64,000 nucleotides of DNA from contig JANNVX010000032.1 of NCBI GenBank assembly GCA_031414595.1, positions 6,947-70,946 of the forward strand, written 5' to 3'. The position numbers were made by a program, and so were the translations under genes. Shown in pieces: positions 654 to 16,690 of the stretch (the first letter of the stretch is position 1; every line of letters starts with the position of its first letter). The notes beneath the pieces are model-generated. The model was not told where the DNA came from, made no database searches, and worked only from the letters and a program-made list of their open reading frames with translations. The DNA comes from Deinococcales bacterium. Lineage in GTDB: Bacteria > Deinococcota > Deinococci > Deinococcales > JAAFIG01.

Positions 654-1067
654 TTAGGTTGAAGCTCTACTTTCTTTTTGTCGGGCTTCAACAATTTCTC
701 TGGTCGGGACTCGAGTCCAAACGTACCAAATGCCAATGCAGCCAAGCACAACCGTACCGATTTTTGCGACCAGTGGTGGGGCGATGATTGCGCTGATGGT
801 ACAAGAAGTGGCAATCATACAAAGCACCAAAATTTTGGTGCGGCGTTTCATGCCCAGTCCAGTGCGGTAATCTTTGACCATTTGCCCGATGACAGGTAGG
901 TTCAAAACCCATGTTTCAAAGCGTGGACTCGAGCGGGCAAAACAAGCCGCCGCCGCCACAAAAAACACTGTTCCAGGCATAACGGGTAAGTAATAGCCAA
1001 TAAAACCCAAAACCACGCAAACCCATCCAGCCGCGAACCATAACCAACGAGTGGGTGAGTTAGTCAT
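654..1067 (-). CDS. DUF454/YbaN-family inner membrane protein
   Basis: 137 aa, 3-4 TM helices. The YLPVMPGT...FF motif region is typical of YbaN/DUF454. Confidence 0.5.
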   Translation of the reverse strand: MTNSPTRWLWFAAGWVCVVLGFIGYYLPVMPGTVFFVAAAACFARSSPRFETWVLNLPVIGQMVKDYRTGLGMKRRTKILVLCMIATSCTISAIIAPPLVAKIGTVVLGCIGIWYVWTRVPTREIVEARQKESRAST

Positions 1068-1106
1068 TGGCTTAGCTTTTCCCTTTCCGGTTGGATAAAC
1101 GTCCCA

Positions 1107-1730: not shown

Positions 1731-1753
1731 ACAAACAGATTACAATAGTTTTT

Positions 1754-3052
1754 ATGTTTGATTTGATTATTCGGGCTAAAAACATCCAGATTGGAATTGA
1801 GTCTGGTAAAATCGTCGGTCTCGAGGCTGAAATAACCAGCCCTAGCAAGTCTGAACTTAATTTTCTCGAGCTTGATGCAGTTCCAGCCGTAATTGATACC
1901 CATGTCCATTTTAACGAACCCGGAAACGAAGATTGGGAGGGCATTCAAACTGGCTCGAGTGCCTTAGCGGTCGGTGGCGGAACGGTTTTTATTGACATGC
2001 CACTCAATTCGATTCCAGTCACCACAACCAAAGCAGCCCTAACTACCAAACTCGAGTGCTTAGCCCAAAAATCCATCACTGATTATGCAGTCTGGGGTGG
2101 TTTAACCCCCGATAGTTTGCCACATCTCGAGGCAATGGCAATGGCTGGTGTGATTGGCTTTAAGGCATTTATGAGCGGCAGTGGATTGCCAGAATTTGAA
2201 CGTTCTGACGAAGAAACGTTACTCGAGGGTATGCAAATTGCGGCAGCCTTGGGCTTACCTGTAGCGGTTCATGCCGAATCTGAGCGCATCACCAGTGCCT
2301 TGAGTAAAGCTGCCAAAGTGATGGGTAAAACAGGCATCCGAGATTACTTGGATTCACGTCCGATAGAAGCCGAACTCGAGGCGATCAAAAGTGCAATTGC
2401 AATTGCTGAACAGACCAATTGTGCGCTTCACATCGTCCATATCTCAAGTGCGGCGGGTGTAGAGCTTATAACCGAAGCCAAAGCCAGAGGTGTGAATGTC
2501 ACCGCCGAAACATGCCCGCATTATTTGTGGTTTTCTGAATCCGACCTAGAACGCCTTGGGGCGGTGCTAAAATGTGCGCCTCCTGTTCGCAGGGCTGAAG
2601 AACTCGAGCAGCTTTGGGGCGTGTTTGAACAAATTGATATTCTTGGTTCTGACCACTCGCCTGCCCCGCCGAGCATGAAAACTGATTTGGATTTTTTTAA
2701 GATTTGGGGCGGTATTTCCGGGGTGCAAAGTACCTTAGAGGTGATGATGACTGCTTCTCAGGCTCGAGGCATCCCACTGGCAGCCTTGCATCAAAAACTC
2801 AGTGCTAACCCTGCCAAGCGCTTTGGTTTACAAAACAAAGGGCAACTTGCAATCGGATTTGATGCCGACATTGCCTTGGTTCAGACAATACCGTACACCC
2901 TCGAGAAAACCGATTTGCACTACCGCCATGCACAAAGCCCGTACCTTGGAGCAAGTCTTTCGGCTCGAGTCAAGCGGACTTTTTTGCGTGGCAATACAAT
3001 TTGGGACGGTCAGCAACTTCATAGAGTCCAAGTAAGTTTTTTGCGACCCTGA
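1754..3052 (+). CDS. allB: cyclic amidohydrolase, allantoinase/dihydropyrimidinase family
   Basis: Start trimmed to MFDLII. Metal-binding motif DTHVHFNEPG...WEG, and overall similarity to AllB over ~430 aa. Confidence 0.65.
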   Translation: MFDLIIRAKNIQIGIESGKIVGLEAEITSPSKSELNFLELDAVPAVIDTHVHFNEPGNEDWEGIQTGSSALAVGGGTVFIDMPLNSIPVTTTKAALTTKLECLAQKSITDYAVWGGLTPDSLPHLEAMAMAGVIGFKAFMSGSGLPEFERSDEETLLEGMQIAAALGLPVAVHAESERITSALSKAAKVMGKTGIRDYLDSRPIEAELEAIKSAIAIAEQTNCALHIVHISSAAGVELITEAKARGVNVTAETCPHYLWFSESDLERLGAVLKCAPPVRRAEELEQLWGVFEQIDILGSDHSPAPPSMKTDLDFFKIWGGISGVQSTLEVMMTASQARGIPLAALHQKLSANPAKRFGLQNKGQLAIGFDADIALVQTIPYTLEKTDLHYRHAQSPYLGASLSARVKRTFLRGNTIWDGQQLHRVQVSFLRP

Positions 3053-3090
3053 ACAATGTTTTTGTGGTCAAAACCGATTACAATTGACTT

Positions 3091-3633
3091 ATGCGATTTC
3101 TTTTTTTAATCCTAATGCTTTTCGGCTTCTCGAGTTTCACGCTGGCGCAGGATTTCTCGAGCAGCGCGGCATTGAACAGTCTAGCGGCTGTTTCGCAAAC
3201 AATCTCAAGGCTTGACCCACCTGTTTTAATGGCTCGAGATTGGGTCTTTGGCGGTTTAGAAGCTGGTTTTGCTGGTCGCACCGTCTCAACGCGCTTACTG
3301 CTTTGGTCGTTGCCGTGGATGGGCGCAAGTATCCTTGGTTTAACCCTAACCACCGATGACAAAGCCAAGGGGTTTTGGAGCATGAGCGGCGCTTGGGGAT
3401 TTATCAATAGTGCGATTGCAATGATTGGTTTTCTGACCCCAGAATCAGACCTCGAGAGCTTACGGAATTTACTGCTGATTAACGCTGGTGTAGATGTGCT
3501 GTACATCGCGGCGGGTGCGTACATGTTGTCTCGAGCCGAAGCCTATTGGCAGGGAGCAGGTTGGGGCGTGATTTTACAAGGTACTTTTTTATTGGTTTTT
3601 GATTTATGGCAGGGTTTGGCAATTCGGTTTTGA
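3091..3633 (+). CDS. hypothetical membrane protein
   Basis: Signal-like N-terminus and several hydrophobic helices. 180 aa. Confidence 0.4.
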   Translation: MRFLFLILMLFGFSSFTLAQDFSSSAALNSLAAVSQTISRLDPPVLMARDWVFGGLEAGFAGRTVSTRLLLWSLPWMGASILGLTLTTDDKAKGFWSMSGAWGFINSAIAMIGFLTPESDLESLRNLLLINAGVDVLYIAAGAYMLSRAEAYWQGAGWGVILQGTFLLVFDLWQGLAIRF

Positions 3634-3667
3634 CTCAAAGCCCATAGCCCAAAGCTCATAGCCCAAC
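3634..3667. repeat. left copy of a ~34-bp inverted repeat pair (CTCAAAGCCCATAGCNCAAAGCNCATAGC)
   Basis: About 90% identical to the reverse complement of 13617-13651. Abuts the stop codons of two convergent genes. Confidence 0.5.
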
Positions 3668-4098
3668 TATGGAATCACATATATCCCATCGCTGCGAGCC
3701 TCGAGCTTAAAGGCTGGTAATGGCTTGGCGGCTGGACCTTGAATCACTGCACCTGTTTCTAAGTTAAACAAACTGCCGTGGCAAGGGCAACCAAGTTGAT
3801 TATTGACGGGTGCGCTGACTCCACAGCCAACATGGGTGCAAACCGTAGAACGAGCAATTAAATGGATTTCGCCTTGGCTGATGCCAGCCGCTTGTGGTTT
3901 GGCAACCCTTGCAATAATGGCTGGATTGGTCTCGAGATTGAGGTTCTTAAAACTACCAACACTGGGAAATTCGCTTAAAGTCGCTACTTTTATGCCCGCT
4001 TGGGCTAGACTCGCTCCGGGGTTTTCTCGGATTGGCATACAGCCAGTCGCACCAATTGCTCCAATTGTAACTAGGGCTTCTCGTCTGGTGATTTTCAT
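3667..4098 (-). CDS. Rieske [2Fe-2S] protein with Tat signal
   Basis: Twin-arginine N-terminus MKITRREAL. Rieske boxes CTHVGC and CPCHGS. Confidence 0.75.
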   Translation of the reverse strand: MKITRREALVTIGAIGATGCMPIRENPGASLAQAGIKVATLSEFPSVGSFKNLNLETNPAIIARVAKPQAAGISQGEIHLIARSTVCTHVGCGVSAPVNNQLGCPCHGSLFNLETGAVIQGPAAKPLPAFKLEARSDGIYVIP

Positions 4099-4315
4099 AA
4101 TTCATTGTCGCACAGGCTTTCGTGAGTATTTTTTGCAACCAAGAGTCAATTGTCTCCTACCATTCAATTTTCTGTTGTCATCAAAGGCGTATGGGACAAT
4201 TCTCTGGTTGTTGCACAGTGTTGTAATTCGTATGCTGTTGCGTAATCTGCTGAACATAAGGCTGAGGTCGTCTACCTGACATAAGGTTGTTGGGGTTTCT
4301 CGAGGAGGAAGGCTG

Positions 4316-5767
4316 GTGGGTATGAGTATGCTCGAATCTGTGCGTGATCGTTTGTTTCCTGATACTCCAGACGGGTCGGCAAAGCTGTGGCTTACGTCGT
4401 CTGTGGTCTGGGGGGTTATTGGCATGACCTTTGGTGTGTTCATGGCAATTTTGTTTGTCTTTCCAGAATTCACCAAAGGTGTGCCGTGGTTGTCGTTTAG
4501 TCGGATTCGTCCGTCACACGTCAACACCGTGGTGATGTCTTGGGTTTCGATGGCAAGCATTGGCTCGATGTTTTATATGTTGCCGCGCTTATTAAAGACT
4601 CCACTGGTTTCTGAGCGTCTGGGTACGGCGGTCGGTTGGTCTTGGAACGCCTTTGCCATCTGTATTCCGCTAACACTCTTAAATGGACTATCGGAAGGGC
4701 GCGAGTGGGCGGAGCTTGTTTGGTGGATGGATTGGTGGATGTTGATTAACCTTGGCTTGGTCGGTTATTTAACCTTTGCGACTGTGGCAAGACGCACCGA
4801 ACCACAATTGTACGTCTCGGTTTGGTATTGGATGGGTTCGATGGTTGGCATGACCTTGGTCTGGATTGTTGGCAACCGAACTTTTGTACCACTAGACGGA
4901 CTTAACGATGCGATTGCCAATTGGTTCTATGCCCACGATGTATTAGGATTATGGATTACCACCATGGGCATTGGAATTATTTACTACCTGTTGCCAAAAC
5001 TAACGGCTGGCAAGAATGGCGAACCGGGCAACCCTGTCTTTAGCCATAAAATGTCCTTGATTGGGTTCTGGGGAAATTTTGCCTTCTACACGGGTATTGG
5101 GGCGCATCACATTATTCAGTCGCCAGTTCCAGAATGGCTTAAAGCCTTTGCGATTGCCTCGAGTGTTTTAATGAGCATTCCAGTCTACTCGGCAAGTGCC
5201 AATTTTTTCTTAAGCACCCAAGGGCGTTGGGAGAACTTGGCTTGGAATTTACCGCTTCGATTTGTAACCTTTGGCTGGATTATGTACGCGCTCTCGAGTT
5301 TTCAGGGCAGTTTACAAGCAGTGCGTTCAATCAACTGGTATCAGCACTTCACGGGAATTGTCAGCGCTCACGCCCATTTAGCCATGCTTGGTGGCTTTAG
5401 CGTGGTGTTGTTTGCTAGTATTTATTACTGTATTCCGCGTCTTTACAAAGTCGAGTGGTACTCTAAAAAACTCGTGGTGGTGCATTTTTGGACGTTTACG
5501 GTTTCGTTTGTAATGTTCTTTTTGGTCTGGACAACCATGGGCTTTGTACAAGCCACCAGTTGGGTCATGGGGATTAACGTCCAACAAACCGTGCCATTTT
5601 TACAACCGTTTACCTTCACCCGCATGATTGCCGCGTTAGCGATGATTTTTTCGGTTTATATTTTTGCCTATAACGTGCTGCAAACTGTGCGGAGCGCTAA
5701 ACGTCAAGAGGCTTTTTCCGGAGCCAGAATTCCTTCAGCAGTTGCGCCTGCTGCGGCGGATGATTAG
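4316..5767 (+). CDS. ccoN: cbb3-type haem-copper oxidase subunit I (CcoN-like)
   Basis: 483 aa polytopic protein. His-ligand motifs GAHH and HAH are present. Followed by CcoO. SD GGAGGAAGG lies upstream. Confidence 0.75.
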   Translation: MGMSMLESVRDRLFPDTPDGSAKLWLTSSVVWGVIGMTFGVFMAILFVFPEFTKGVPWLSFSRIRPSHVNTVVMSWVSMASIGSMFYMLPRLLKTPLVSERLGTAVGWSWNAFAICIPLTLLNGLSEGREWAELVWWMDWWMLINLGLVGYLTFATVARRTEPQLYVSVWYWMGSMVGMTLVWIVGNRTFVPLDGLNDAIANWFYAHDVLGLWITTMGIGIIYYLLPKLTAGKNGEPGNPVFSHKMSLIGFWGNFAFYTGIGAHHIIQSPVPEWLKAFAIASSVLMSIPVYSASANFFLSTQGRWENLAWNLPLRFVTFGWIMYALSSFQGSLQAVRSINWYQHFTGIVSAHAHLAMLGGFSVVLFASIYYCIPRLYKVEWYSKKLVVVHFWTFTVSFVMFFLVWTTMGFVQATSWVMGINVQQTVPFLQPFTFTRMIAALAMIFSVYIFAYNVLQTVRSAKRQEAFSGARIPSAVAPAAADD

Positions 5768-5775
5768 GAGTTTTT

Positions 5776-6699
5776 ATGCTGAATCCTAAGAATGCAATTA
5801 TCGGGCTGATGTTTATGCTCCTTGTGACTGGTGTGACCAGTTTGGTGGTCGTCGTACCCGCCGCAACTTTTAATCCTGAGCCATCAGTTGGTTTACGCAA
5901 TTACACCGAAGCCGAGTTGCGTGGGCGCGAAGTTTTTAAGCGCGAGAACTGCTATGTTTGCCATAGTCAATTTGTGCGTTTTCAAGACGAAGGTGTTGGT
6001 CCAACTTCGCAAGCTGGCGACTTTGCCTACGACAATTCAAACTTGCTCGGCACGCTGCGAAATGGTCCGGATTTGACCTATGAAGGCGGCTTATACCCGG
6101 ACGAATGGCACATTGGGCATCTAAAAGCGCCGCGTTCGTACTTACCGGGCAGCTATATGCCAAGTTACAGTTACTTAGACTCTAAAGACATCAAAGACCT
6201 TGTGGCATTTATCCAAAGCCTTGGGACACGCAATACACGAGCTTGGGACACCAAAGATGTCAATGTCCCAGAAAAGTACCGCAATCTCGAGTCTCCACTT
6301 GGTCAGACGGCAGCAAATATCGGGGCTGGGCGTGGTATTTACAACCAGAATTGCTCGGCTTGTCACGGCTTTGAGGGTCGGGCAGATGTGCCTTTGGCAA
6401 AAATGTTCTATCCAAAACCAGCCGCCAATTTCCATTTGCCTCGTTATAAAGATTTTACCGACGGACACTGGTTTAATAAAGTCGCAAGGGGCGTACCGGG
6501 AACTCGGATGCCGCGCTGGGACCAAATTCTCAATTCTGAGCAAATGTGGTATGTCGTCACCTACCTAAAGTCTTTAGCAGCAGACCAAGACCTTGTGCCG
6601 AAAGCGGGACGGGAAAAGTATTACGACAAGTCAGTTTTGCAACCCGGAACAATCAAGAAAAAGTACGAAGGCGCACCTAAAGCGGGCGGTGGTCACTAA
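5776..6699 (+). CDS. ccoO: CcoO-like monohaem subunit fused to a second c-type cytochrome domain
   Basis: N-terminal TM helix. First CYVCHSQ...GPDL...MPSY region matches the FixO/CcoO pattern. A second CSACH haem motif sits in the C-terminal half. Confidence 0.7.
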   Translation: MLNPKNAIIGLMFMLLVTGVTSLVVVVPAATFNPEPSVGLRNYTEAELRGREVFKRENCYVCHSQFVRFQDEGVGPTSQAGDFAYDNSNLLGTLRNGPDLTYEGGLYPDEWHIGHLKAPRSYLPGSYMPSYSYLDSKDIKDLVAFIQSLGTRNTRAWDTKDVNVPEKYRNLESPLGQTAANIGAGRGIYNQNCSACHGFEGRADVPLAKMFYPKPAANFHLPRYKDFTDGHWFNKVARGVPGTRMPRWDQILNSEQMWYVVTYLKSLAADQDLVPKAGREKYYDKSVLQPGTIKKKYEGAPKAGGGH

Positions 6700-6992
6700 T
6701 GAAACATTTGGCTCGAGCCTTGGTTCTTGCTTGTTTCTCGAGTTTGGCATTTGCCGACCATGTGCCGGGCGTTGGCTTAAATTACAGTGGAACTTGGGTG
6801 GTGTTGATTGCTGTTGGTGTGATTTTTTCGCTTTTGATTTTGTCTTTGTTGTGGGCAGTTTTAGATGGGCAATTTCAGAATTCTGAACGGGTTAAATTTG
6901 CAGTGGCAGAGGTTAATGAAACCGATTTTATTCCGAGTATTGAGCGTCCGCAAGGCAATCTGGGTATTCAACGTCCGCAAGGCAAGAGGTGA
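6699..6992 (+). CDS. small membrane protein with C-terminal ERPQGN repeat
   Basis: TAATG-coupled to ccoO. One TM helix. The DNA carries a tandem copy of CGTCCGCAAGGCAA. Confidence 0.4.
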   Translation: MKHLARALVLACFSSLAFADHVPGVGLNYSGTWVVLIAVGVIFSLLILSLLWAVLDGQFQNSERVKFAVAEVNETDFIPSIERPQGNLGIQRPQGKR

Positions 6993-6995
6993 GTT

Positions 6996-7154
6996 ATGGC
7001 AGAGCAGAATAAAGACAACCACGACGACAACCATACCCACGAAATTGCTGGTATTCAAGTTGGCGAGAAAAACGTGCCAACCTCAGTGATTGCTGTGATT
7101 ATTTTCATTGTCTTTTTCGCCTTAATTTCTTGGATTGCACCACAGGGGTTTTGA
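6996..7154 (+). CDS. 52-aa single-TM protein, FixP_N/CcoQ-like
   Basis: Not in the ORF track (<60 aa). HTHEIAGIQ...TM helix resembles the CcoP N-terminal segment. Its stop overlaps the start of the next gene (TGATG). Confidence 0.35.
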   Translation: MAEQNKDNHDDNHTHEIAGIQVGEKNVPTSVIAVIIFIVFFALISWIAPQGF

Positions 7155-8158
7155 TGAAAAAAATCATAACACTCTTTCTAATCTCGAGTTTAGCCGCTTG
7201 TAGCGTACCGAGTAACGCCAATAATCCAGCCAAAGAAGCCGCCAAAAAAGGGGTTTTGTACATTCGTGAAGGCGAAAAACCACTTGAATTAAAAGTCGAA
7301 GAAGGCGCATATGACTGGAAGTACCCGAAGTACCCCGAAGATTACAAAGTTGATTTGAGTAACCGCGACCAAAACAACCAAACTTATATGTCTGGGCGGG
7401 AAATCACTTACCGAGCCAAACCCGATGGTCAACATAAAATGGACACTGCCTTGGCAGAATTTGGTTCATATGCAGGTCCTTGGCTCGAGGGCGAAGAAGC
7501 CTTGCTCTTACCAGTAGCCAACCCCAATGTGGTACTGGGTGACGCTTTAATCAAGAGTTTGGGGGCAGAAATCAAGCCCGAAATGCTGCCGACACTCGAA
7601 GAAACCCCTTTTCAGGCATACTTAAAATTGCGTGAACTTGGTAAGGACACGGAAGGTCGTCACCGCACTGTAACCATCGAATTAACTGGTGTGACTAACC
7701 CTTCGAGTGGCAAGCCCGAAAATGCCGAGTACGATGTTCAACTTGATAAAGAGGCTTTATGGAGCATTGCTTACGCTTTGTACCGCAAAATTCAACCTGA
7801 CTTTAAGACCAGAATTCCAACTCGAGAAGACCCGAAAAAACTACTCGATGGCGCATTGATTTACGGCAATTGCAACATGTGTCACGGCTCGGATGGTTGG
7901 GGCTTGGGCAAGAGTGGTCATAAGTTGCAACCACACCCAGCCAATTTTCATGAGCCAAGGCGTTTGTTTAATCGTTCTGATGCCAAACTGCGTGAAGTCT
8001 TGAAGCACGGAATTTACGGAAGTGCCATGCCACCGTGGGGTGACATACTCTCTGAAAATGAAATTAACCATGTGGTGGCATATATTCGTTCTTTTTCGTA
8101 CAGTCTCGAGCCACCAGTCTTGAATGTCAAACCACGTTTTAAGGGAGGTCAGCCATGA
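7154..8158 (+). CDS. lipoprotein with C-terminal monohaem cytochrome c domain (CcoP c-domain-like)
   Basis: Lipobox LAAC. CNMCH haem motif and a C-terminal cyt-c-like tail. Start trimmed to MKKIITL. Confidence 0.6.
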   Translation: MKKIITLFLISSLAACSVPSNANNPAKEAAKKGVLYIREGEKPLELKVEEGAYDWKYPKYPEDYKVDLSNRDQNNQTYMSGREITYRAKPDGQHKMDTALAEFGSYAGPWLEGEEALLLPVANPNVVLGDALIKSLGAEIKPEMLPTLEETPFQAYLKLRELGKDTEGRHRTVTIELTGVTNPSSGKPENAEYDVQLDKEALWSIAYALYRKIQPDFKTRIPTREDPKKLLDGALIYGNCNMCHGSDGWGLGKSGHKLQPHPANFHEPRRLFNRSDAKLREVLKHGIYGSAMPPWGDILSENEINHVVAYIRSFSYSLEPPVLNVKPRFKGGQP

Positions 8159-8183
8159 ACCTGACACTCAAGGGAGGTCAACC

Positions 8184-8837
8184 ATGATTGACCGCAGAAG
8201 TATCGTGAAAGGCATCACTATTTTGCCGCTTTTAGCTGTGGCTGGTGGGATTGGAACTGCCCTTTTATCGTTTCTTAAACCGACTTGGAAACCACTGGCT
8301 TTGCCTGTCACCGAAAAACCCTTAAATGAGGACAAAGTTGTTGGCACACTCGAGGAATTTGCTAAGGATTACGACTTTAAGGCGTTTGTATTCACGCAAA
8401 TTACCGTCGAATACACGGCTCGAGGGCGGGCGGCTACCGATGTGCTTGGTTATGCGGTTCGCATCCCCAATAACAGTTTAGCCGCCGCCGATGTGGGTGT
8501 TGGACCCAGTGGCTTACGCCGAGGCTACGGCGAAACTGATTACAATGGTCAAAAGTACAGCATTGTGGTGGTCTCAAGAATTTGCGCTCATTTGGGTTGT
8601 ATTTTTGAGTACCATCAACCTGCCGAAGTTTGTTCTGGCTTTAATTACTGTGGCGGCTCTACTCCAATGTTTTCTTGTCCGTGCCATTTATCGGTCTATG
8701 ACCCAGCCCAACAGCAAGATGTGGCTGGGGTTGGTAAATTACCCGGCAAGGTTGTCTCTGGTCCTGCGCCCCGCACTCCATTTCCTTTTGATTTTGAAAT
8801 TAAAGGCAATGAAATCATCGTCAAAAGCTACGGTTAA
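8184..8837 (+). CDS. Rieske iron-sulfur protein of a bc/b6f-type complex
   Basis: SD AGGGAGG then ATG. N-terminal TM helix. Rieske boxes CAHLGC and CPCHLS. Confidence 0.75.
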   Translation: MIDRRSIVKGITILPLLAVAGGIGTALLSFLKPTWKPLALPVTEKPLNEDKVVGTLEEFAKDYDFKAFVFTQITVEYTARGRAATDVLGYAVRIPNNSLAAADVGVGPSGLRRGYGETDYNGQKYSIVVVSRICAHLGCIFEYHQPAEVCSGFNYCGGSTPMFSCPCHLSVYDPAQQQDVAGVGKLPGKVVSGPAPRTPFPFDFEIKGNEIIVKSYG

Positions 8838-8849
8838 GGAGGAATACTT

Positions 8850-10157
8850 ATGGCAGCCCCCGCAGTTCCCGCAAAAAAAGCTGTTCCAAATGTTGGGCAA
8901 AAAATCGCCCAATGGTGGACTAAAAGTGCGCGTAATTTAGATTTATTTGACGAAAACCAAACCGATAAAGTTTTAACCGACCCGTGGTACATGCTTGGTG
9001 GGATGGCGTTGTTGTTTTGGTACATCACCATTGTGACAGGCACAGTTCTGATGTTTTTTTATGTGCCGGACACCTATCAGGCATGGCGCAGTGTGCGTGG
9101 AATGTTTGAAGGTGAACAGGGTTTTATTGTTGCCCTGATTCGCAATATGCACAAATACGGCGCAGATGCACTGATTATTGCCCTAACAATGCGAATTTAC
9201 CGCATGTACTTTAGGGGTGAATTTAAGAATTACAATCAGCTTTCCTATATGCTGACAATCATTGGCTTACTTTTAGCCATGTTTAGTGGTTTAACGGGTT
9301 ACTTGCTGATTTGGAATCAACGCGCACTGTGGGCAACCAAGGTTTTTGCGACCTTCCCAACTTTTGTGGATGATTTTCACAATATCCCGACGATCAAAGT
9401 CTTCCTAGCTCCGCTTGCTTATGTTCTCGAGCATACCCTCTCGAGTCTTAAAATTGGGGCTTTGACGGCTAATTTTATGCTGGCTGGTCAAAGTATCGGT
9501 CCAGCTACTTTGACCCGTTTTTACAGCGCCCATTTTATGCTTTCGATGCTGGCAATTTTGGCAATTGAAGCCTACTTTGCCCGTAAGGGACGCGGTGGTA
9601 AAATTGGTGAAGCGGCAGCCGGTGGTGGGGCTGGGCGCTTTAAGCGGATTAATTTACCGTGGTTTGCAGTGGTTTTTTGTTTTGTAATTCTGGTGGTAGT
9701 TTCGATTTGGGTTCCAGTGGATACGGGCAGCCCCGCGAACTACAGCGTTACGCCAAATCCGATTTTGTCCGACTGGTACTTTTTGGGGTTGTACCAAATG
9801 ATGAAGTGGTGGCAACCCGCCGTGGCAACCTTACAGACCGTTTTGCTTCCCTTGGTGGCTTTTATTGTCGTCTTTTTAGATTATAGCCCCGAACGCAATC
9901 CTTGGAAACGCCCGTTCTGGACAATGGTTGGAATTTACGGATTGGTCTCATGGTTGGCGTTTAGCATCCTGATTATTCTAAACATTGCCGACATTAAACG
10001 CGACCCACCTTATGTTTACTTGGTCAGCATGATTATGCTTGGGGCTGGCGCAATTTGGCACTGGGTCTTTATGGCAGGCGAACGCAAAAAACGCTTAAAA
10101 CTCGAGGCAGAAAAAGCCGCTAAAGCTGCTCTAGCCGCCCCACAAGCGGCTGATTAA
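8850..10157 (+). CDS. cytochrome b (long form) lacking both haem bH ligands
   Basis: Cyt b/b6 helix B and D motifs are present. First His is retained (NMHKYG, SAHFML). Residues at the +14 His positions are Arg and Tyr. Confidence 0.7.
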   Translation: MAAPAVPAKKAVPNVGQKIAQWWTKSARNLDLFDENQTDKVLTDPWYMLGGMALLFWYITIVTGTVLMFFYVPDTYQAWRSVRGMFEGEQGFIVALIRNMHKYGADALIIALTMRIYRMYFRGEFKNYNQLSYMLTIIGLLLAMFSGLTGYLLIWNQRALWATKVFATFPTFVDDFHNIPTIKVFLAPLAYVLEHTLSSLKIGALTANFMLAGQSIGPATLTRFYSAHFMLSMLAILAIEAYFARKGRGGKIGEAAAGGGAGRFKRINLPWFAVVFCFVILVVVSIWVPVDTGSPANYSVTPNPILSDWYFLGLYQMMKWWQPAVATLQTVLLPLVAFIVVFLDYSPERNPWKRPFWTMVGIYGLVSWLAFSILIILNIADIKRDPPYVYLVSMIMLGAGAIWHWVFMAGERKKRLKLEAEKAAKAALAAPQAAD

Positions 10158-10174
10158 GCGAAAGGAAAGCAATC

Positions 10175-10477
10175 ATGAAAGGAAGCACTTGGCTATTTAC
10201 CCTCGCCTCATTTGTTGGTGGCATCCTTGTCTTTTCAAGTGGCTACAACCAAGTGTTGCGCTACCTCGAGCAGCCGACTTGGACGGGCTTAGCGATGATT
10301 GCTTTTTGGTTGACTTTGCTGCTGTTTTTTGTGGTTACACTGGGGTTTATTATGTATGCCGTAGACCGCAAAGCTGGCAATGTACGGGTCAAAATCGCGT
10401 TATTTGAACGTTTACTGGGTTATTCTAAAGAGGCTGTTTTGCCAGAATCTCGAGAAAAAAATAAGGAGAATTCATGA
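10175..10477 (+). CDS. small membrane protein (2 TM)
   Basis: Hydrophobic 100-aa ORF with an SD. Lies within the coupled operon. Confidence 0.4.
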   Translation: MKGSTWLFTLASFVGGILVFSSGYNQVLRYLEQPTWTGLAMIAFWLTLLLFFVVTLGFIMYAVDRKAGNVRVKIALFERLLGYSKEAVLPESREKNKENS

Positions 10478-10845
10478 AGACAATCATCGCCATACTGCTG
10501 GTTTTAGGGGCGCTCGGACTTGCGCCTTTGACCATTGGGGCGTTCGCTCACGCCAATCCAGATTTTGGAACAGTTGATAAAACCTTATCTTCCGAAAATC
10601 CATACATTGTTCGTGAGGATGGAGCGCCAAAAATTCCAGAGCTTGCGGTGAGCTTGGTTAAAATTATTCGAGATACCGAAGGGGCGATTTCTGGGGCGTT
10701 GCTGCCAAACCTAAAATCCTTCCCATTTGAACGTGGCTTTGCGTATATGGGCTTAACTGTACTGCTGACTGCGATTGCTTCGGCACTGCTTGCCGATACG
10801 CGCAGTCAAACCCTCGTTAAACCTGGCAAGAGGAGGCTGGCATAA
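10474..10845 (+). CDS. exported protein (signal peptide)
   Basis: ATGA overlap with the upstream gene. Cleavable-looking N-terminus. Confidence 0.4.
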   Translation: MKTIIAILLVLGALGLAPLTIGAFAHANPDFGTVDKTLSSENPYIVREDGAPKIPELAVSLVKIIRDTEGAISGALLPNLKSFPFERGFAYMGLTVLLTAIASALLADTRSQTLVKPGKRRLA

Positions 10846-12032
10846 TGGCAGGTTACAGCGCCGACCAAGCCCCAACTTCTCGGGACAAAGGTTTTGATGC
10901 AGGTTTAGATGGTATCCATAAAGGTGTTGTTGCCGTAGACAAAGCCATCAATAAAGTCATCCCCGAAGAGTTCAATCCGTTTTATTACTTGGGCGGCATC
11001 ACCAATGTACTTTGGGTGCTGCTTGTGCCAACCGGCATTTTCTTGTGGTTTTACTATAAACCCACCACCTCAGAAGCCTTCTCGAGTGTTGATTATTTAA
11101 CCGTACAGGTCTTTTTTGGTGGTGTGATTCGCGGTATTCATCGTTATGCTGGCAATGGCATGATTTTATTGGCGGTGCTGCACATGTTGCGTAATTTCTT
11201 CACCGACCGTTACCGAGGCTTTAGAGATATCCCTTGGGTTTCTGGAGTTATCCTCTTGTTTCTAACTGGTTTCATTGGCTTGACTGGTTATTTGTTGGTT
11301 TGGGATCAACGCGCCTTGGTCATTACCGAAGCCTTGGTACAGATTTTACGCAGTTTTGACTTGGTGGTTGCTGGATTTGGCACTTGGTTAGCCAGAGGAC
11401 TCATCGGTGGTGACGAACCGAATAATTTAACCTTGGCTCGGATGCTGTTTTTGCATGTTGGACCTGCAGTGATGGTGTTCTTTTTCTTGTGGGTGCATTA
11501 TTTGCGTTTGCACCGCCCCAAAATCTGGCCTCCGGCTTTTGTAACGCTACTGACGATTGGCGCAGTTTTATTGGTGGCTGGTTTAGCACCACTCGAGAAA
11601 ACCTTGCCCGCCACACAACCGATTGTTGAAGGACAAGCTGCCATTGTCTATGACATTTTCTATTTGCTGCCTGTATTAGCGCTCTCGAGCATCAGCGCCC
11701 CTTGGATTTTGGCGATTCTACTGCTGCTTTTTGCGGTGATGTTTATTCTGCCTTGGATTCCAGCCAAAAAACACCGTTATGTCAATGTCGCAACCGTCAC
11801 CCCAGAAAACTGTACCGGTTGTCAACTCTGTGCTATTGACTGCCCGTTTGACGCAATCGTGATGGTTCCTGGAGCAAATCCAAATCCGCGTTATACCGAG
11901 TTAGCCGTGGTCAATGATGACAAATGTGCTGAATGTGGTATTTGCGTTGGTGCTTGCCCATTCCATGCAATCAATCTCCCGCTCATGGATGAATACACTG
12001 TGCGCGATAAGGTGGTGGCGTTACTTAAATGA
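10845..12032 (+). CDS. dihaem cytochrome b domain fused to 2x[4Fe-4S] ferredoxin domain
   Basis: Helix B has H..(13)..H (GIHRY...VLHML). Helix D has H..(13)..H (FLHVG...WVHYL). C-terminal CTGCQLCAIDCP and CAECGICVGACP motifs. Confidence 0.75.
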   Translation: MAGYSADQAPTSRDKGFDAGLDGIHKGVVAVDKAINKVIPEEFNPFYYLGGITNVLWVLLVPTGIFLWFYYKPTTSEAFSSVDYLTVQVFFGGVIRGIHRYAGNGMILLAVLHMLRNFFTDRYRGFRDIPWVSGVILLFLTGFIGLTGYLLVWDQRALVITEALVQILRSFDLVVAGFGTWLARGLIGGDEPNNLTLARMLFLHVGPAVMVFFFLWVHYLRLHRPKIWPPAFVTLLTIGAVLLVAGLAPLEKTLPATQPIVEGQAAIVYDIFYLLPVLALSSISAPWILAILLLLFAVMFILPWIPAKKHRYVNVATVTPENCTGCQLCAIDCPFDAIVMVPGANPNPRYTELAVVNDDKCAECGICVGACPFHAINLPLMDEYTVRDKVVALLK

Positions 12033-12517
12033 CACAAGCAACTGAACATATCCAACCCCAAGTTTTAGCCTTGAGTGGCAAACCCAAAATTTTTGGCTTT
12101 GTCTGCGAATGGAGCTTAGGACGCACCGATTACATCCATGAAGATGGCACGGTCAAAGGCATGGAGCATATCAAAACCCTTAAAATTCCTTGCTCGGGCT
12201 TTGTGAAAACCGAATGGGTCACGGTGGCATTTGAAAATGGCGCTCAAGGTGTGTTTGTGCTGGGTTGCCCACTCGGAGATTGCCATTTTAACGAAGGTAA
12301 CTTCATTATTAACGGCAGACTCGAGCAGCACACAGGCAGAATGGTCAACCGTAAAATCATTGACGAAGCTGGGCGCGTTGCCGAGCTTTACCTTGGTGTG
12401 ACTGGCAACAACGATTTCTTTACTCAACTCGAAGACTTCACCAAGTACATCAGCGACATGCCAGCCTTGGTAGTCGCTGCCAAAAAACCTCGGGCTGCGG
12501 CAGCCAAAAAGGAGTAA
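12029..12517 (+). CDS. MvhD/FlpD-like hydrogenase iron-sulfur subunit family protein
   Basis: Cys pattern CEWS...PCSGF...GCPLGDCHF, typical of the methyl-viologen-reducing hydrogenase delta subunit family. ATGA-coupled to the upstream gene. Confidence 0.6.
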   Translation: MTQATEHIQPQVLALSGKPKIFGFVCEWSLGRTDYIHEDGTVKGMEHIKTLKIPCSGFVKTEWVTVAFENGAQGVFVLGCPLGDCHFNEGNFIINGRLEQHTGRMVNRKIIDEAGRVAELYLGVTGNNDFFTQLEDFTKYISDMPALVVAAKKPRAAAAKKE

Positions 12518-12521
12518 TCAG

Positions 12522-12725
12522 ATGGAAGAAACTGCTGTAAATTCTAAAATTCTCGAGATAAGCGGCGAATCTACCTTGGCTGTGCGACCTGAACTCGAGC
12601 AAGTTGGAACTACCGAAAAGGACTCTCGGGGGGTGGGCTATCTGATGAATTGGGTCAGTTTAATTTTACTTTTTGTGCTTTCAATGATTGCCATTGCTTG
12701 GTTTGGACCTTTTAGCGAAGTATAG
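12522..12725 (+). CDS. small C-terminally anchored membrane protein
   Basis: SD AAGGAG. One TM helix at the C-terminus. Confidence 0.35.
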   Translation: MEETAVNSKILEISGESTLAVRPELEQVGTTEKDSRGVGYLMNWVSLILLFVLSMIAIAWFGPFSEV

Positions 12726-12773
12726 CCGAGCCTCATCTTAAGTCTGGTTCTTAATCATCCAAAAAGCGTTAAA

Positions 12774-12806
12774 CTAGAGGCAACCATCAGTGGTTGCCTC
12801 TAGTTT
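12774..12806 (+). terminator. perfect 12-bp stem hairpin abutting the kinase start codon
   Basis: CTAGAGGCAACC-ATCAGT-GGTTGCCTCTAG followed by TTT, then ATG. Confidence 0.4.
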
Positions 12807-13616
12807 ATGGCAAGAATCCCTTTAACAACACCTGAGCCAGCCGAACCTTCCAATGCGATGGATAAGTTGCGTATGAGCCAAATAGAAATTATCTCGATCA
12901 CCCCATTTATTCGGCTCGAGAAGGGCAATTGGCAAGGCAAGCGTGTGCTGGTCAAACGCTTAAAAACATCCATGATGAACAACCCTGATGTGCTTGAACG
13001 CTTCGAGCGCGAAGCCGATATTCTCGAGCGGCTTGACCACCCGAATATCCCAGCCTTGATTCACCGCGAATCTGGGGTACTGATGCGCCAATACGTTGAA
13101 GGCAACACGCTTTATCATTACCTCAACACCGCCACCATAGACACCGCCTCAACTTTGCATATTGCAAGGGGTTTATTGTCGGCATTGGTGCATTCGCACG
13201 TCCGAGAAATCCTACATTTGGATGTCAAACCCGCCAATGTGCTACTCAGCGCTGACCGCCGCGTCCATCTGATTGATTTTGGATGTGCCAAAGACCTGAC
13301 TTTGGGCAGTATTACCCACCATGAAGCCCGTCTTGGCACACCGCATTACATGGCACCCGAGCAATTCAAAGGCATCCGCGATGAACAACGCTCCGACATT
13401 TACAGCGTCGGGGCAGTGATGTACGAATGCCTGATGGGACAACCACCACAACGTGACCCATTTGCATGGTTATCTGGACGTGGTGCATTACCCAAGCAAA
13501 TGCCTAAGAATAATCAGTTGGCTGATATCATCTGGAAAGCCATTCAACGCAACCCAGACCACCGATACGACGAAGCCCTTGATATGCTCGAGGCGTTAGA
13601 AGCGATTGAAGTTTAG
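12807..13616 (+). CDS. Ser/Thr protein kinase (Hanks-type)
   Basis: HLDVKPANVLL catalytic loop, DFG, and GTPHYMAPE activation segment. Confidence 0.75.
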   Translation: MARIPLTTPEPAEPSNAMDKLRMSQIEIISITPFIRLEKGNWQGKRVLVKRLKTSMMNNPDVLERFEREADILERLDHPNIPALIHRESGVLMRQYVEGNTLYHYLNTATIDTASTLHIARGLLSALVHSHVREILHLDVKPANVLLSADRRVHLIDFGCAKDLTLGSITHHEARLGTPHYMAPEQFKGIRDEQRSDIYSVGAVMYECLMGQPPQRDPFAWLSGRGALPKQMPKNNQLADIIWKAIQRNPDHRYDEALDMLEALEAIEV

Positions 13617-13651
13617 GAGAGCTATGGGCTTTGAGCTATGGGCTTTGAGGG
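13617..13651. repeat. right (inverted) copy of the ~34-bp repeat
   Basis: Its reverse complement CCCTCAAAGCCCATAGCTCAAAGCCCATAGCTCTC matches 3634-3667. Confidence 0.5.
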
Positions 13652-13695
13652 TTTACTAGCCGATTGTCTCGAGAAACCGATTCTTAGAGGAAAAA

Positions 13696-14610
13696 ATGAA
13701 ACGATTATTGACTTTCTTGGGTGTGTTTCTATTTGGCTTGGCAATTTCTCAAAGTGGCTCTCCTCTGCCCGCCAGTGCAACCCTCATCTCGAGCAAAATC
13801 ATCAACGGAATTACCGAACAAGACCTGTGGTATAAAAGCGACAATTTACGAATTCGCGGGCGGTTGTTTTTGCCAAGTGGCACGGCTCGAGTGGCTGGGG
13901 TTGTCTACAATCACGGCGGGGTTACTGGTTTATCTAACCTTGCGGCAACACGCTGCCGCGAACTGGCACAGGCTGGCTTGGCGGTCTTTGCCTCGAGCTA
14001 CCGAGGTGAGGATGGCTCGGATGGCAAAGTAGAAGTCGCCAAAGGCGAAATAGACGATGTTCTGGCTGGCTATAACTGGTTTAAGACCCACCCTCGAGTG
14101 GATGCAAAGCGCATTGCCCAATTTGGCACAAGCCACGGGGCATTGATCGGGCTTTTTAGCAGCGCAAGGGACTCGAGTTTTCGCAGTTTGGTCTTTGCTT
14201 ACGGCGTAGCCGATATTGTCGCATGGTACGAGCATTTGGTACGCACCAAGCAACTGACAAACGACCAATTGACCAAGGACACTTACGGTAACGGTCCCGC
14301 AGACCGCCCCGAAAGTTTTGCGGTTCGGATGGGTTTGAGCGCCGTCCCAAAAATCCCTGATGCCATGCCTGTGCTGATTATTCAGGGTGGAAAAGATGTG
14401 ATTGTGCCGCTTGAACAAGCCAAAGTCTTACACAGCAGCCTCAAGAAAAACGGCAAACAAAGCCAATTGAACGTTTATCCAAATAGCGAACATGGTTTTG
14501 TGATTACCCAAGAAGCGGCTGCCAAAAAAAGTAAGGTGTCTGGTCTCGAGGCTAGTCTTGCATGGTCAGACATAAAAAAATTCTTACTCGAGACAACCAA
14601 AATCAGGTAA
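13696..14610 (+). CDS. secreted alpha/beta hydrolase (dienelactone hydrolase/S9-like)
   Basis: Signal peptide. Nucleophile elbow GTSHG. C-terminal His region. Confidence 0.6.
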   Translation: MKRLLTFLGVFLFGLAISQSGSPLPASATLISSKIINGITEQDLWYKSDNLRIRGRLFLPSGTARVAGVVYNHGGVTGLSNLAATRCRELAQAGLAVFASSYRGEDGSDGKVEVAKGEIDDVLAGYNWFKTHPRVDAKRIAQFGTSHGALIGLFSSARDSSFRSLVFAYGVADIVAWYEHLVRTKQLTNDQLTKDTYGNGPADRPESFAVRMGLSAVPKIPDAMPVLIIQGGKDVIVPLEQAKVLHSSLKKNGKQSQLNVYPNSEHGFVITQEAAAKKSKVSGLEASLAWSDIKKFLLETTKIR

Positions 14611-14619
14611 ACTCGAGCC

Positions 14620-15126
14620 ATGTTATTTGCTTTGGTTGCCCTCATTATTGTGCAGCGCTTACTTGAACTGGGTCATGCTAAGCGCAACTTGGCTTGGGTA
14701 ATGGCAAATGGTGGCAAAGAATACGCAGCCGAACATTACCCTTTTATGGTTGCCTTGCACTCGAGTTGGATTGTGGCACTGCTGCTTGAGGGATGGCTAC
14801 GCGGCGCGGCTCTTTCGAGTTTATGGTGGTTGTGGCTTGGGCTTTTTTTAGTCGCTCAGGTCTTACGCTACATCGTCATCTCGAGCCTAGGTAAACTCTG
14901 GAATACCCGAATTATTATTGTGCCAAATGCAAAATTGGTACGCTCTGGGTTATACAGCTTTGTTAAACACCCCAATTATATGATTGTTGCCCTCGAGTTA
15001 TTGGTCACACCACTGATTTTTGATGCTTGGATTACAGCGATTGTTTTTAGTGTCCTGAATGCTGTTTTATTGCTAGGTTTTCGGATTCCTGCCGAAGAAC
15101 GCGCCCTCGAGACATTAAAGGGTTAA
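14620..15126 (+). CDS. isoprenylcysteine carboxyl methyltransferase-family membrane protein
   Basis: Polytopic 168-aa protein with the C-terminal ICMT/PEMT-like motif region. Confidence 0.45.
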   Translation: MLFALVALIIVQRLLELGHAKRNLAWVMANGGKEYAAEHYPFMVALHSSWIVALLLEGWLRGAALSSLWWLWLGLFLVAQVLRYIVISSLGKLWNTRIIIVPNAKLVRSGLYSFVKHPNYMIVALELLVTPLIFDAWITAIVFSVLNAVLLLGFRIPAEERALETLKG

Positions 15127-15145
15127 TGTAGCTTATAATGCCAGT

Positions 15146-16690
15146 ATGACGATTCAATTGACCAACCCTGTACCCGAAGTAGCAATGCCACTTTTTTCGC
15201 AAGCTGCCTTAGAATTTGTGACTCAACTCGAGCAGAAATTTGCAGCGCGGCGCTTGGAGTTACTGACCGCTCGAGCCGAACGCGCCAAGCGCCTAAAAAA
15301 CGGCGAATTACCGCATTTTTTGCCTGAAACAAGCAATATCAGGGAATCTGAATGGACGGTTGCACCATTGCCACAAGACCTACAAGACCGCCGTACCGAA
15401 ATAACCGGACCCGTAGACCGAAAAATGGTGATTAACGCCCTCAATTCTGGGGCAAAGGTTTTTATGGCAGATTTTGAAGATGCCAATAGTCCAACATGGT
15501 CAAACACCACGCTAGGACAAGTGAATTTGCTTGATGCCAATAAACGCATTATTTCACTCGAGCAGGGCGAAAAAACCTATGTGTTAAACCAAACCGTTGC
15601 GACTCTCAAAGTTCGTCCGCGTGGTTGGCATCTCGAGGAACGCCATGCGGTCTTGGATGGCAAGGCTGTGTCGGCTTCGCTGTTTGATTTTGGGATTTAC
15701 TTTTTTAACAATGTTGATGTGCTGCTTGGACGTGGTTCAGCCCCTTATTTTTACCTGCCTAAACTTGAATCACATCTCGAGGCAAGATTATGGAACGATG
15801 TTTTTGTCTTTGCCCAAGAATACCTTGGTGTCCCACAAGGCACGATTCGCGCCACAGTTTTAATCGAAACAATCCTCGCCTCGTTTGAAATGCACGAGAT
15901 TTTGTATGAACTGCGCCACCACTCGAGTGGCTTAAATTGCGGACGTTGGGATTATATTTTTAGTTTTATTAAAAAACTCGGTCACGACCCTAGATTTGTT
16001 CTGCCAGACCGTGCCAAAGTGACGATGGCAACCCAGATGATGCGCTCCTACTCAAAACTGGCGATACAAACCTGCCACAAGCGCAACGCCCCAGCCATCG
16101 GCGGGATGAGTGCTTTTATTCCCGTTAAAAACGATGAGGCTGCCAATGCAAAGGCATTTGAACAAGTTCGGCTTGATAAAGAACGTGAAGCTGGCGATGG
16201 TCATGACGGCACTTGGGTGGCGCACCCCGGGCTTGTCCCTGTGGCACTCGAGGTCTTTAACCGACTGATGCCGACCCCCAATCAAATCGGCAAAATTCCA
16301 GAAGGGGCTGTTTTTGAATCAGACCTTTTAATTGTTCCGACCGATGGTGTGACCCGAACTGGACTCGAGCTAAATGTTTCTGTGGCACTCCAATACTTAG
16401 AAGCATGGTTACGCGGCAGTGGGGCAGTGCCAATCAATAATTTAATGGAAGATGCGGCTACCGCCGAAATCTCGAGGGCGCAACTCTGGCAATGGGTGCA
16501 TCACAAAGTTGAACTCGAGGACAGCACAATTGTCACCCGCGACTTGGTACTACAAACCATTCAAAAGTACCTTGGACAGCTAAAAGCAGAAGGCAAACGC
16601 TTTGAAGAAGCCGCTAAACTCTTAATCAACACCACCAAAGAACCATTTGCCGAATTCTTAACCACCTCGGCGTACCAAATTCTTGAGTAA
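15146..16690 (+). CDS. aceB: malate synthase A
   Basis: Colinear with E. coli AceB, including DFEDANSPTW, GLNCGRWDYIFS and MEDAATAEISR. Confidence 0.85.
   Translation: MTIQLTNPVPEVAMPLFSQAALEFVTQLEQKFAARRLELLTARAERAKRLKNGELPHFLPETSNIRESEWTVAPLPQDLQDRRTEITGPVDRKMVINALNSGAKVFMADFEDANSPTWSNTTLGQVNLLDANKRIISLEQGEKTYVLNQTVATLKVRPRGWHLEERHAVLDGKAVSASLFDFGIYFFNNVDVLLGRGSAPYFYLPKLESHLEARLWNDVFVFAQEYLGVPQGTIRATVLIETILASFEMHEILYELRHHSSGLNCGRWDYIFSFIKKLGHDPRFVLPDRAKVTMATQMMRSYSKLAIQTCHKRNAPAIGGMSAFIPVKNDEAANAKAFEQVRLDKEREAGDGHDGTWVAHPGLVPVALEVFNRLMPTPNQIGKIPEGAVFESDLLIVPTDGVTRTGLELNVSVALQYLEAWLRGSGAVPINNLMEDAATAEISRAQLWQWVHHKVELEDSTIVTRDLVLQTIQKYLGQLKAEGKRFEEAAKLLINTTKEPFAEFLTTSAYQILE

Follow-up and report, generated by a model that had tools for sequence, protein, structure and literature searches.

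We know of no coding role for the STRR heptanucleotides, nor of a mechanism by which they spread. They were reportedly described by Mazel et al. in 1990 from Calothrix, Nostoc and Anabaena, with the units CCCCAGT, TTGGTCA and CAACAGT. Heptanucleotides are the most abundant class of long simple-sequence repeats (SSRs) in many bacteria, where they are mostly intergenic, lie near the end of the upstream open reading frame (ORF) and vary in length among close relatives (PMC4692102, PMC4679880). The heptameric SSRs GGGAATC of Xanthomonas and GGGGA(C/T)T of Nostoc are about 90% intergenic, lie on either strand, far nearer to where the upstream ORF ends than to the one that follows, and differ in length and sequence among close relatives that share the neighbouring genes (Rehm et al. 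2015, PMC4692102). Marine Beggiatoaceae, cyanobacteria and Bacteroidetes carry direct repeats of TAACTGA as arrays of 2–6 copies dispersed over many intergenic sites; the majority of sets precede genes, within 5' UTRs, and were proposed to act in translational regulation (MacGregor 2015, PMC4679880). Spacers of relatives are shorter there and free of repeats, and distant phyla share the heptamer with no evident mechanism of transfer (PMC4679880).

Here we analysed a 64-kb stretch of Deinococcales DNA (the window, taken at its full length), in which an earlier note had described a near-identical 34-bp motif at either end of a block of respiratory genes. The pair is real, and its copies lie where they had been placed, at 3634 and in the region 13617–13651, in inverted orientation: a 29-nt consensus matched positions 3634–3662 on the plus strand and 13621–13649 on the minus strand. 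A length of 34 bp is nevertheless generous, the identical core amounting to 27 of 29 positions. A repeat finder assigned the inverted pair arms of 36 nt with 86% complementarity. Even with three mismatches allowed, the consensus had no third match in the window, and none of 100 shuffled controls contained any match to it.

Each copy abuts a stop codon. On the left, a DUF6992 gene (3091–3633, plus strand; Pfam PF22503, E 9e-23) terminates at 3631–3633 and the copy starts at 3634, its last base overlapping the stop codon (3667–3669, minus strand) of a Rieske [2Fe-2S] protein gene (3667–4098, minus strand; PF00355). On the right, the copy follows the stop codon (13614–13616) of a Ser/Thr protein kinase gene (12807–13616, plus strand; PF00069, E 6.5e-33), beyond which lies an S9/DLH-type alpha/beta hydrolase gene (13696–14610, plus strand; Pfam). 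The gene content reported between the copies was likewise borne out by Pfam matches. Divergent from the Rieske gene, a respiratory cluster (4316–12517, plus strand) carries the cbb3 gene ccoN, a FixO and cytochrome c gene, a further cytochrome c gene and a cytochrome b gene, followed by a second cytochrome b gene fused to a 2x[4Fe-4S] domain, a FlpD-like gene and small ORFs; the kinase gene is the last before the right copy.

The earlier note had overlooked the tandem make-up of each copy. The unit of both is the heptamer CAWAGCY, in which CAAAGCY and CATAGCY alternate, with about four units per array. Tandem repeats were detected with command-line TRF, including arrays that alternate between A and T, and both sites were described either as period 7 with 3.9 copies (80% match) or as period 14 with 2.2 copies (94–100% match). 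The left array (3634–3666, plus strand; CTCAAAGCC CATAGCC CAAAGCT CATAGCC CAA; period 7 x3.9 or 14 x2.2) occupies all 33 nt that separate the DUF6992 gene from the convergent Rieske gene. The right array (13619–13649, minus strand, reading CAAAGCC CATAGCT CAAAGCC CATAGCT on that strand; period 14 x2.2, 100% match) begins 2 nt past the kinase stop codon, within the 79-nt spacer that precedes the hydrolase gene, and lies at least 47 nt upstream of the next start codon. Relative to the gene whose stop codon precedes the array (Rieske on the minus strand, kinase on the plus strand), the two have the same orientation, and their units carry TGA on one strand and TAG on the other. The right array is identical in three independent assemblies of the same species (L001–L003); exact-protein look-ups with DUF6992, Rieske and CcoN for other assemblies spanning the left array returned no match, and that array is represented by the window only. 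A third heptamer array, built of a different unit, (GGCAAAG)x4, was located from TRF, the sequence and its ORFs at 51324–51354 (plus strand), directly after the truB stop codon and between convergent genes (Pfam: TruB and HD/GAF domains).

We interpret the two copies as independent heptanucleotide SSRs of an STRR-like kind, strain-specific and situated at gene 3' ends, and we put the probability of this reading at roughly 0.86. The arrays consist of head-to-tail 7-nt units, recur at unrelated loci and change in copy number by whole units. As with the STRRs, a 7-nt unit is repeated in tandem and one unit family is dispersed over many intergenic sites per genome; however, CAWAGCY is identical to no named STRR, hence STRR-like, the host belongs to an uncultured Deinococcales lineage and is not a cyanobacterium, and the arrays are short, at about four units. 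Like the repeats of Xanthomonas and Nostoc, they are heptameric and intergenic, lie near the end of the upstream ORF and vary among relatives. Those repeats, though, are G-rich and capable of forming G-quadruplexes, whereas a pattern of four G runs is missing from the CAWAGCY arrays; and where Xanthomonas species have most of their sites in common, the two described here are strain-specific. With TAACTGA they share the dispersal of heptamer arrays, units that contain stop codons and shorter, repeat-free spacers in relatives, but TAACTGA occurs mostly in 5' UTRs and the arrays here at 3' ends.

Comparison of the two junctions was made with relatives graded by identity of the kinase (L124, 97%; L456, 91%; L126, 84%; L129, 72%) and with the more distant L127. 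Gene order in L124 is the same as in the window from the amidohydrolase gene through malate synthase, but its left junction is a 4-nt gap with no array, against 33 nt in the window; copy number at this site stands at about 4–4.5 units in the window and none in L124. At the right junction, L124 holds a single CAAAGCC unit instead of four and is shorter by exactly 21 nt, or three units, which is the signature of replication slippage or unequal exchange in a tandem array. Both flanks are conserved in L126, with gaps of 2 nt (left) and 10 nt (right) and neither array. In L456 and L129 the kinase and hydrolase genes are 3 nt apart or overlapping, and there is no right array; across the gene tables of L456, L126 and L129, the hydrolase gene starts 3–10 nt past the kinase gene or overlaps it. 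Wherever a junction retains the window's flanking gene, therefore, relatives with kinases 72–97% identical lack the array; both arrays are recent and strain-specific.

Kinase orthologues (72–97% identity) occupy the same position in the relatives, the Rieske gene is annotated at the corresponding position in L124, L126 and L129, and the order of the cluster is kept in L124, L126, L127, L129 and the part covered by contig L456. The cbb3/bc-like cluster is resident and vertically inherited in this Deinococcales lineage; it was not mobilised recently as a cassette. No conclusion on the horizontal spread of aerobic respiration can therefore be drawn from the repeats, which have little bearing on the respiratory genes.

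The repeat family extends well beyond the block. A related Deinococcales MAG, which shares the CTCGAG excess of the lineage, holds the same mixture of CAAAGCY and CATAGCY on three scaffolds (L038, L091, L093), where a GNAT gene, greA and rpsD (rpsD–rpoA) have arrays behind their stop codons; all these loci are unrelated to the respiratory block, and they contain other heptamer arrays as well. All six arrays of the lineage begin 0–3 nt past a stop codon. From this MAG, and from the third window array with its different unit, we infer that the arrays are probably dispersed in the source strain itself. A scan of a genome collection that did not include the source genome found at least 120 loci with such arrays in many phyla, and a metagenome scan for the strict alternating pattern found 75, of which none (0 of 75) carried the CTCGAG excess that would mark further copies from this organism. 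The matches across phyla span GC contents of 0.36–0.68. We rejected the idea that CAWAGCY is a special pan-bacterial element: in a viral collection, permuted control heptamers of matched composition formed arrays at more than 120, 78 and 44 loci against 19 for CAWAGCN itself, as many or more. A literature search on the heptamer sequences themselves returned primer noise only. In a crude survey of arrays, 30 of 135 lay within 10 nt of a 3' end, compared with 5 of 79 for 5' ends, and 39 lay between convergent genes compared with 11 between divergent ones. This survey agrees with the published 3'-end bias of heptanucleotide SSRs.

The suggestion that the copies belong to a REP-like family was right insofar as they form a dispersed extragenic repeat family, but not as to kind. 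REPs are imperfect, hairpin-forming palindromes linked to RAYT transposases. In common with REP and BIME elements, the arrays are short, extragenic and dispersed, often following stop codons or lying between convergent genes; in contrast to them, they are direct tandem repeats with no significant hairpin potential.

As independent SSRs, the arrays would belong to the dispersed intergenic heptanucleotide repeats common in bacteria, and insertion directly after a stop codon would spare both the coding sequence and the promoter of the next gene. The right array may have gained its units by replication slippage or unequal exchange; the left array is a gain of about 29 nt at a site where relatives hold only 2–4 nt. 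Simple slippage fails to account for this composite left array, since relatives have no seed unit there. Ectopic copying from an array of the same family may have seeded it, or a switch of templates; the adjoining gene end, GGTTTTG, is complementary to its first unit, CAAAGCC. The arrays are probably near-neutral selectively at these sites. Their inverted orientation and their bracketing of respiratory genes are coincidental; with two copies, an inverted orientation has even odds. The locus offers a small, clean example of heptanucleotide repeats gained or lost at gene 3' ends between strains, in which the number of units at one site changed by exactly three and at the other a whole array arose without a seed, and this bears on the question of how heptamer families spread.

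Alternatively, the arrays could be functional 3'-UTR elements, placed after stop codons by selection or by a targeted mechanism, a reading that we regard as unlikely. Candidate roles, each correspondingly a long shot, are binding sites for a protein that binds single-stranded nucleic acid (one heptamer per protein, as for cold-shock proteins), barriers to mRNA decay and traps of out-of-frame stop codons. The placement of all six lineage arrays 0–3 nt past a stop codon fits such a function, as do the preference, across phyla, for 3' ends and convergent gene pairs and the TGA and TAG on opposite strands of the units. In L091, moreover, arrays of opposite orientation, separated by about 100 nt, form a strong hairpin on folding (−44.8 kcal/mol, z −6.2), and PMC4679880 cites binding of heptamer repeats by B. 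subtilis CspB. However, the arrays are absent from the same sites in relatives 84–97% identical and are thus dispensable there, arbitrary heptamers form arrays equally often, and purifying selection that removes insertions from promoters and coding sequence accounts for the 3' bias just as well, above all where intergenic gaps measure 2–10 nt. Isolated arrays also have no significant structure: 61-nt segments with an array at the centre, folded as RNA, had z-scores of −0.13, −1.46 and −0.54 relative to shuffles, with no significant hairpin, and a scan for terminator-like sites (17 found, 15.9 expected from shuffles) placed none over either array. A role as an intrinsic (Rho-independent) terminator or as structured RNA was rejected on these grounds. 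We also rejected a phase-variation contingency locus, since both arrays follow stop codons, outside any reading frame and any promoter or 5' UTR, the left one between convergent genes and the right one directly after the upstream stop codon.

Arrays of this lineage keep within 3 nt of a stop codon, closer than the general bias, which may hint at a function or a targeted mechanism. A related reading holds that a sequence-specific process, templated copying or template switching, seeds arrays at stop codons, where they then act as 3'-end elements; we consider it improbable. The 29-nt left gain without a seed in the 97% relative and the stop distances of 0–3 nt would be the footprints of such seeding. 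Equally doubtful are the roles that the seeded arrays would have at 3' ends, as protein-binding or decay-blocking sites, or as hairpin terminators formed by opposite arrays that lie close together.

The first proposal of the earlier note was that the copies mark the termini of a mobilised or recombined module. We consider it very improbable that they are the terminal inverted repeats of a 10-kb respiratory element, mobile or integrated not long ago, for which GGTTT would be the duplicated target site. In purely formal terms the layout suits such an element: the inverted pair, with its 29-nt core, sits exactly where the outermost genes of the block end, and on the plus strand GGTTT lies beyond both copies, as had been reported. 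In more distant relatives the cluster from ccoN to the kinase lies between other flanks (SecA and CsoR/HMA in L127; SIMPL on the left in L129). Even where flanks differ, however, no inverted repeats bracket the block, in L127, L129 or any other relative examined. The note itself had named two observations as contrary to a mobile module, and both were made: synteny in relatives without the repeats (both junctions in L124 and L126, which hold the block between the same flanks, and the right junction in L456 and L129), and dispersed copies unconnected to the block, at the GNAT, greA and rpsD loci of the related MAG. No transposase, integrase or recombinase gene is present in the block, nor among the 20 ORFs of 654–17799, whose Pfam families are respiratory, kinase, hydrolase and metabolic only. 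The composition of the block is native, and the proposed check against the flanks revealed no contrast: GC is 0.474 compared with 0.470–0.486 outside, GC3 is 0.484 compared with 0.470, and CTCGAG encodes a fraction of 0.67 of the Leu-Glu dipeptides compared with 0.68. GGTTT was rejected as a target-site duplication because it is older flank sequence, present in relatives without arrays. The left one is the coding end of the DUF6992 gene (CGG TTT TGA), a gene end found also in L124 and L126, and the right one lies in spacer already present in L124. As with the terminal inverted repeats of IS elements, composite transposons and MITEs, similar inverted sequences bound a DNA segment; here, though, neither a transposase nor a genuine target-site duplication is present, relatives have the segment free of repeats, and the supposed termini are simple-sequence arrays that also occur at unrelated loci. 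The case is a caution: two simple-sequence arrays of one family may pass for terminal inverted repeats and even seem to come with a target-site duplication.

Efficient RecA-dependent exchange usually needs an identity longer than 15 nt. It is likewise very improbable that the pair is a substrate for homologous recombination that flips the respiratory block as a switch: the copies are inverted, 27/29 identical and 9.9 kb apart, but their longest unbroken identity is just 15 nt, the repeats are missing from close relatives, the block has one orientation in every relative and in all three same-species contigs, and flipping it would leave the promoter relations of its internal operons unchanged.

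The density of CTCGAG is lower in the block (2.8 per kb) than in its flanks (6–7 per kb). Foreign origin was rejected as the reason, because the membrane proteins of the block contain fewer Leu-Glu dipeptides while the share of these written CTCGAG is equal. In this lineage CTCGAG is in 23-fold excess, a feature more notable than the repeats.

We found exactly two occurrences of a 29-nt consensus in the 64-kb window, at 3634–3662 (+) and 13621–13649 (−), with no third match there at ≤3 mismatches and none in 100 dinucleotide-preserving shuffles. A repeat finder returned the pair as the longest inverted repeat of the window, with 36-nt arms of 86% complementarity. The inverted pair described in an earlier note was therefore recovered, with a core identical at 27 of 29 positions, while its internal structure had been missed: each copy is a tandem repeat of about four heptamer units, CAWAGCY, in which CAAAGCY alternates with CATAGCY (TRF: period 7, 3.9 copies, or period 14, 2.2 copies). 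The positions were as described. The left copy starts at the base 3′ of the TGA of the DUF6992 gene (3091–3633, +), the left flank of the block, and extends as far as the Rieske gene's stop codon (gene at 3667–4098, −); the right copy comes after the TAG stop of the Ser/Thr kinase gene (12807–13616, +). The intervening ~10-kb block holds the expected Rieske gene, cbb3 ccoN, a FixO plus cytochrome c gene, a cytochrome c gene, two cytochrome b genes, one of them fused to a ferredoxin domain, an FlpD-like gene and the kinase.

Two features of the block merit mention. One is the unusual respiratory cluster at 8850–12517: the cbb3 ccoN and FixO-cytochrome c genes are followed immediately by a pair of cytochrome b genes, of which the second carries a fused 2x[4Fe-4S] ferredoxin domain, and then by an FlpD/MvhD-like gene. 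The other, in the gap separating the bc-like operon from the kinase gene, is a near-perfect 38-nt palindrome (TAAACTAGAGGCAACCA-TCAG-TGGTTGCCTCTAGTTTA, 12770–12807, 17-bp stem) that extends to the kinase start codon and may serve as a terminator or operator.

Relatives were fetched at graded distances from the window kinase, which served as the anchor, ±10 kb around it covering both junctions. At 97% kinase identity (L124), gene order from amidohydrolase to malate synthase is kept, the DUF6992–Rieske gap measures 4 nt rather than 33 and contains no array, and the right junction has one CAAAGCC unit against four in the window, a difference of exactly 21 nt. At 91% (L456), the left junction falls outside the contig, and on the right 3 nt separate the kinase gene from the hydrolase gene; at 84% (L126), both flanks are kept, with gaps of 2 nt (left) and 10 nt (right). 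The ccoN-to-kinase cluster is kept between SecA (left) and CsoR/HMA (right) at 78% (L127), and at 72% (L129) a SIMPL gene replaces DUF6992 beside Rieske, and the kinase and hydrolase genes overlap. None of these relatives has inverted repeats at the cluster edges, which shows that the block is older than the repeats, and ccoN-to-kinase order is conserved in all of them, in L456 over the part covered by its contig, even with different flanks. Since the same sites lack arrays in relatives, the arrays are dispensable there; they were gained within the window's own sub-lineage, separately at two sites. Gene content also changes immediately to the right of malate synthase (16693–18265 versus 12318–17511 in L124), where the window and a same-species locus (L001) carry a nucleotidyltransferase/HepT toxin-antitoxin pair and the 97% relative carries Cupin_5, GNAT and SLFN/AlbA_2-HATPase genes with an extra 210-aa ORF.

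The proposal that the copies mark the termini of a mobile module does not hold, as L124 and L126 keep the block and its flanks without the repeats. No block ORF matched any family of transposases, integrases or recombinases. The GGTTT flanking each copy does not represent a target-site duplication, because both are present where arrays are absent: the left one is the DUF6992 coding end (CGG TTT TGA), and the right one lies within a spacer already present in L124. Comparison of GC and codon usage with the flanks, suggested as a check, gave no foreign signal: GC is flat across block and flanks, GC3 is 0.484 in the block versus 0.470 elsewhere in the window, and the share of Leu-Glu dipeptides encoded CTC-GAG is 0.67 versus 0.68, so the block is compositionally native. 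CTCGAG itself is sparser in the block than in the flanks (2.8 versus 6–7 per kb), which reflects only the lower number of Leu-Glu dipeptides in the block's membrane proteins; the equal CTC-GAG share rules this out as a sign of foreign origin.

CTCGAG occurs 340 times in the window against 14.5 expected, a 23-fold excess; it takes up 72% of TCGA tetramers, encodes ~68% of Leu-Glu dipeptides and is as dense in non-coding as in coding DNA. The excess extends to L001, to L124–L129 and to three scaffolds of a related Deinococcales MAG, JAAFJQ01 (L038, L091, L093), at 3.6–7 per kb in the MAG and in relatives whose kinase identity is as low as 72%. It resembles a HIP1-type highly iterated palindrome outside cyanobacteria; our literature search found no paper on CTCGAG hyper-abundance. 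Other short palindromes are strongly avoided in the window (GGCC 2, 217 expected; GATC 29, 249; CCWGG 10, 112; AAGCTT, ACGCGT, ACTAGT and CGATCG 0 each), which suggests heavy restriction pressure.

The three MAG scaffolds are assigned to the window's lineage by their CTCGAG excess (6–7 per kb) and by GC matching the window, and cluster-mates of the window CcoN are labelled Deinococcales or Deinococcota. They carry the CAAAGCY/CATAGCY mixture directly 3′ of a GNAT acetyltransferase stop between convergent genes, 3 nt past the greA stop, and directly past the rpsD stop in the rpsD–rpoA spacer. These loci, which also hold arrays of other heptamers, are unconnected to the block or to respiration, and the tie between motif and module fails here as well; the alternative of a REP-like family stands loosely, as a dispersed extragenic repeat, and in no stricter sense.

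Beyond this lineage, scanning 185,579 species-representative genomes with four CAWAGCN units gave at least 120 matches, against an estimated <0.1 by chance. The matches listed come from many phyla, including Gemmatimonadota, Acidobacteriota, Chloroflexota, Bacteroidota, several proteobacterial classes, Firmicutes, Planctomycetota, candidate-phyla-radiation (CPR) groups, Cyanobacteriota and Deinococcota, and are mostly uniform arrays, many of them next to arrays with a different heptamer and many at the end of a contig. In metagenomes, the strict alternating pattern matched 75 loci (GC 0.36 to 0.68), none of the window's lineage. About 13 dispersed CAAAGCY-CATAGCY arrays come from one assembly, JAESFU01 (L133, L135, L138, L151, L160, L162–L164, L167, L181, L184, L187, L203), mostly on contigs of 60–260 kb with GC 0.46–0.48 and no CTCGAG excess; this is an unrelated organism in which the heptamer family is abundant.

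The CAWAGCY heptamer is not special, tandem heptamers of arbitrary sequence being generically common: in viral contigs, CAWAGCN x4 occurred at 19 loci and three composition-matched permuted heptamers at >120, 78 and 44. Among long simple-sequence repeats, heptanucleotide repeats form the most abundant class in many bacterial genomes; they are mostly intergenic near the end of the upstream ORF and vary from one close relative to the next, and the proposed cause is slippage, which a 7-nt polymerase footprint would favour (PMC4679880, PMC4692102). In a rough survey of our fetched loci using crude ORF calls, arrays lay ≤10 nt from a gene 3′ end in 30/135 cases and from a 5′ end in 5/79, with 39 convergent versus 11 divergent neighbour pairs. 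The window arrays are dispersed heptanucleotide simple-sequence repeats of this known kind, here with the unit CAWAGCY in an uncultured Deinococcales lineage.

At the right site, the three-unit difference seen in the alignment would be the product of tandem-repeat slippage. The left array needs more than slippage, being a complete gain of ~29 nt where relatives have no seed unit; it may have been seeded by ectopic copying from another array, or by a template switch, possible because CAAAGCC, the unit with which it begins, is complementary in the fold to the GGTTTTG next to it. All six arrays of the lineage start 0–3 nt past a stop codon, which selection could explain in a genome with 2–10-nt intergenic gaps; a targeted process or a function at 3′ ends keeps a low probability. 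Folded in isolation, the arrays gave no significant structure as RNA (z −0.13, −1.46 and −0.54), and they overlap no terminator-like site; in the window, 9.9 kb separates the two copies, which lie on different transcripts. Within a ribosomal-protein/rpoA operon on L091 (3800–3945, rpsD–rpoA spacer), GCTATGAG arrays directly past the rpsD stop and opposite-orientation CTCATAGC arrays ~100 nt further downstream form a hairpin of very high stability (−44.8 kcal/mol, z −6.2), so heptamer arrays can create structure by accident.

The window contains further repeats. A third heptamer array, (GGCAAAG)x4 at 51324–51354, lies directly past the truB stop between convergent genes and pairs with a downstream CCTTTGCC in a 9-bp hairpin (51324–51369, z −2.8). 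A dispersed repeat, CCCTCTCCCGACTCGCTTAGGCTCGCTACCCTC, has three copies, one inverted (31965–32001, 32208–32239 and 39409–39445), and a palindromic repeat, TGTAGGGGCAGACCCCTGTGTCTGCCC, has two (44805–44833 and 57691–57719). Longer-period tandem repeats occur at 36772–36848 (23 nt x3.3, 96% match) and 54847–54931 (24 nt x3.5, 95% match).
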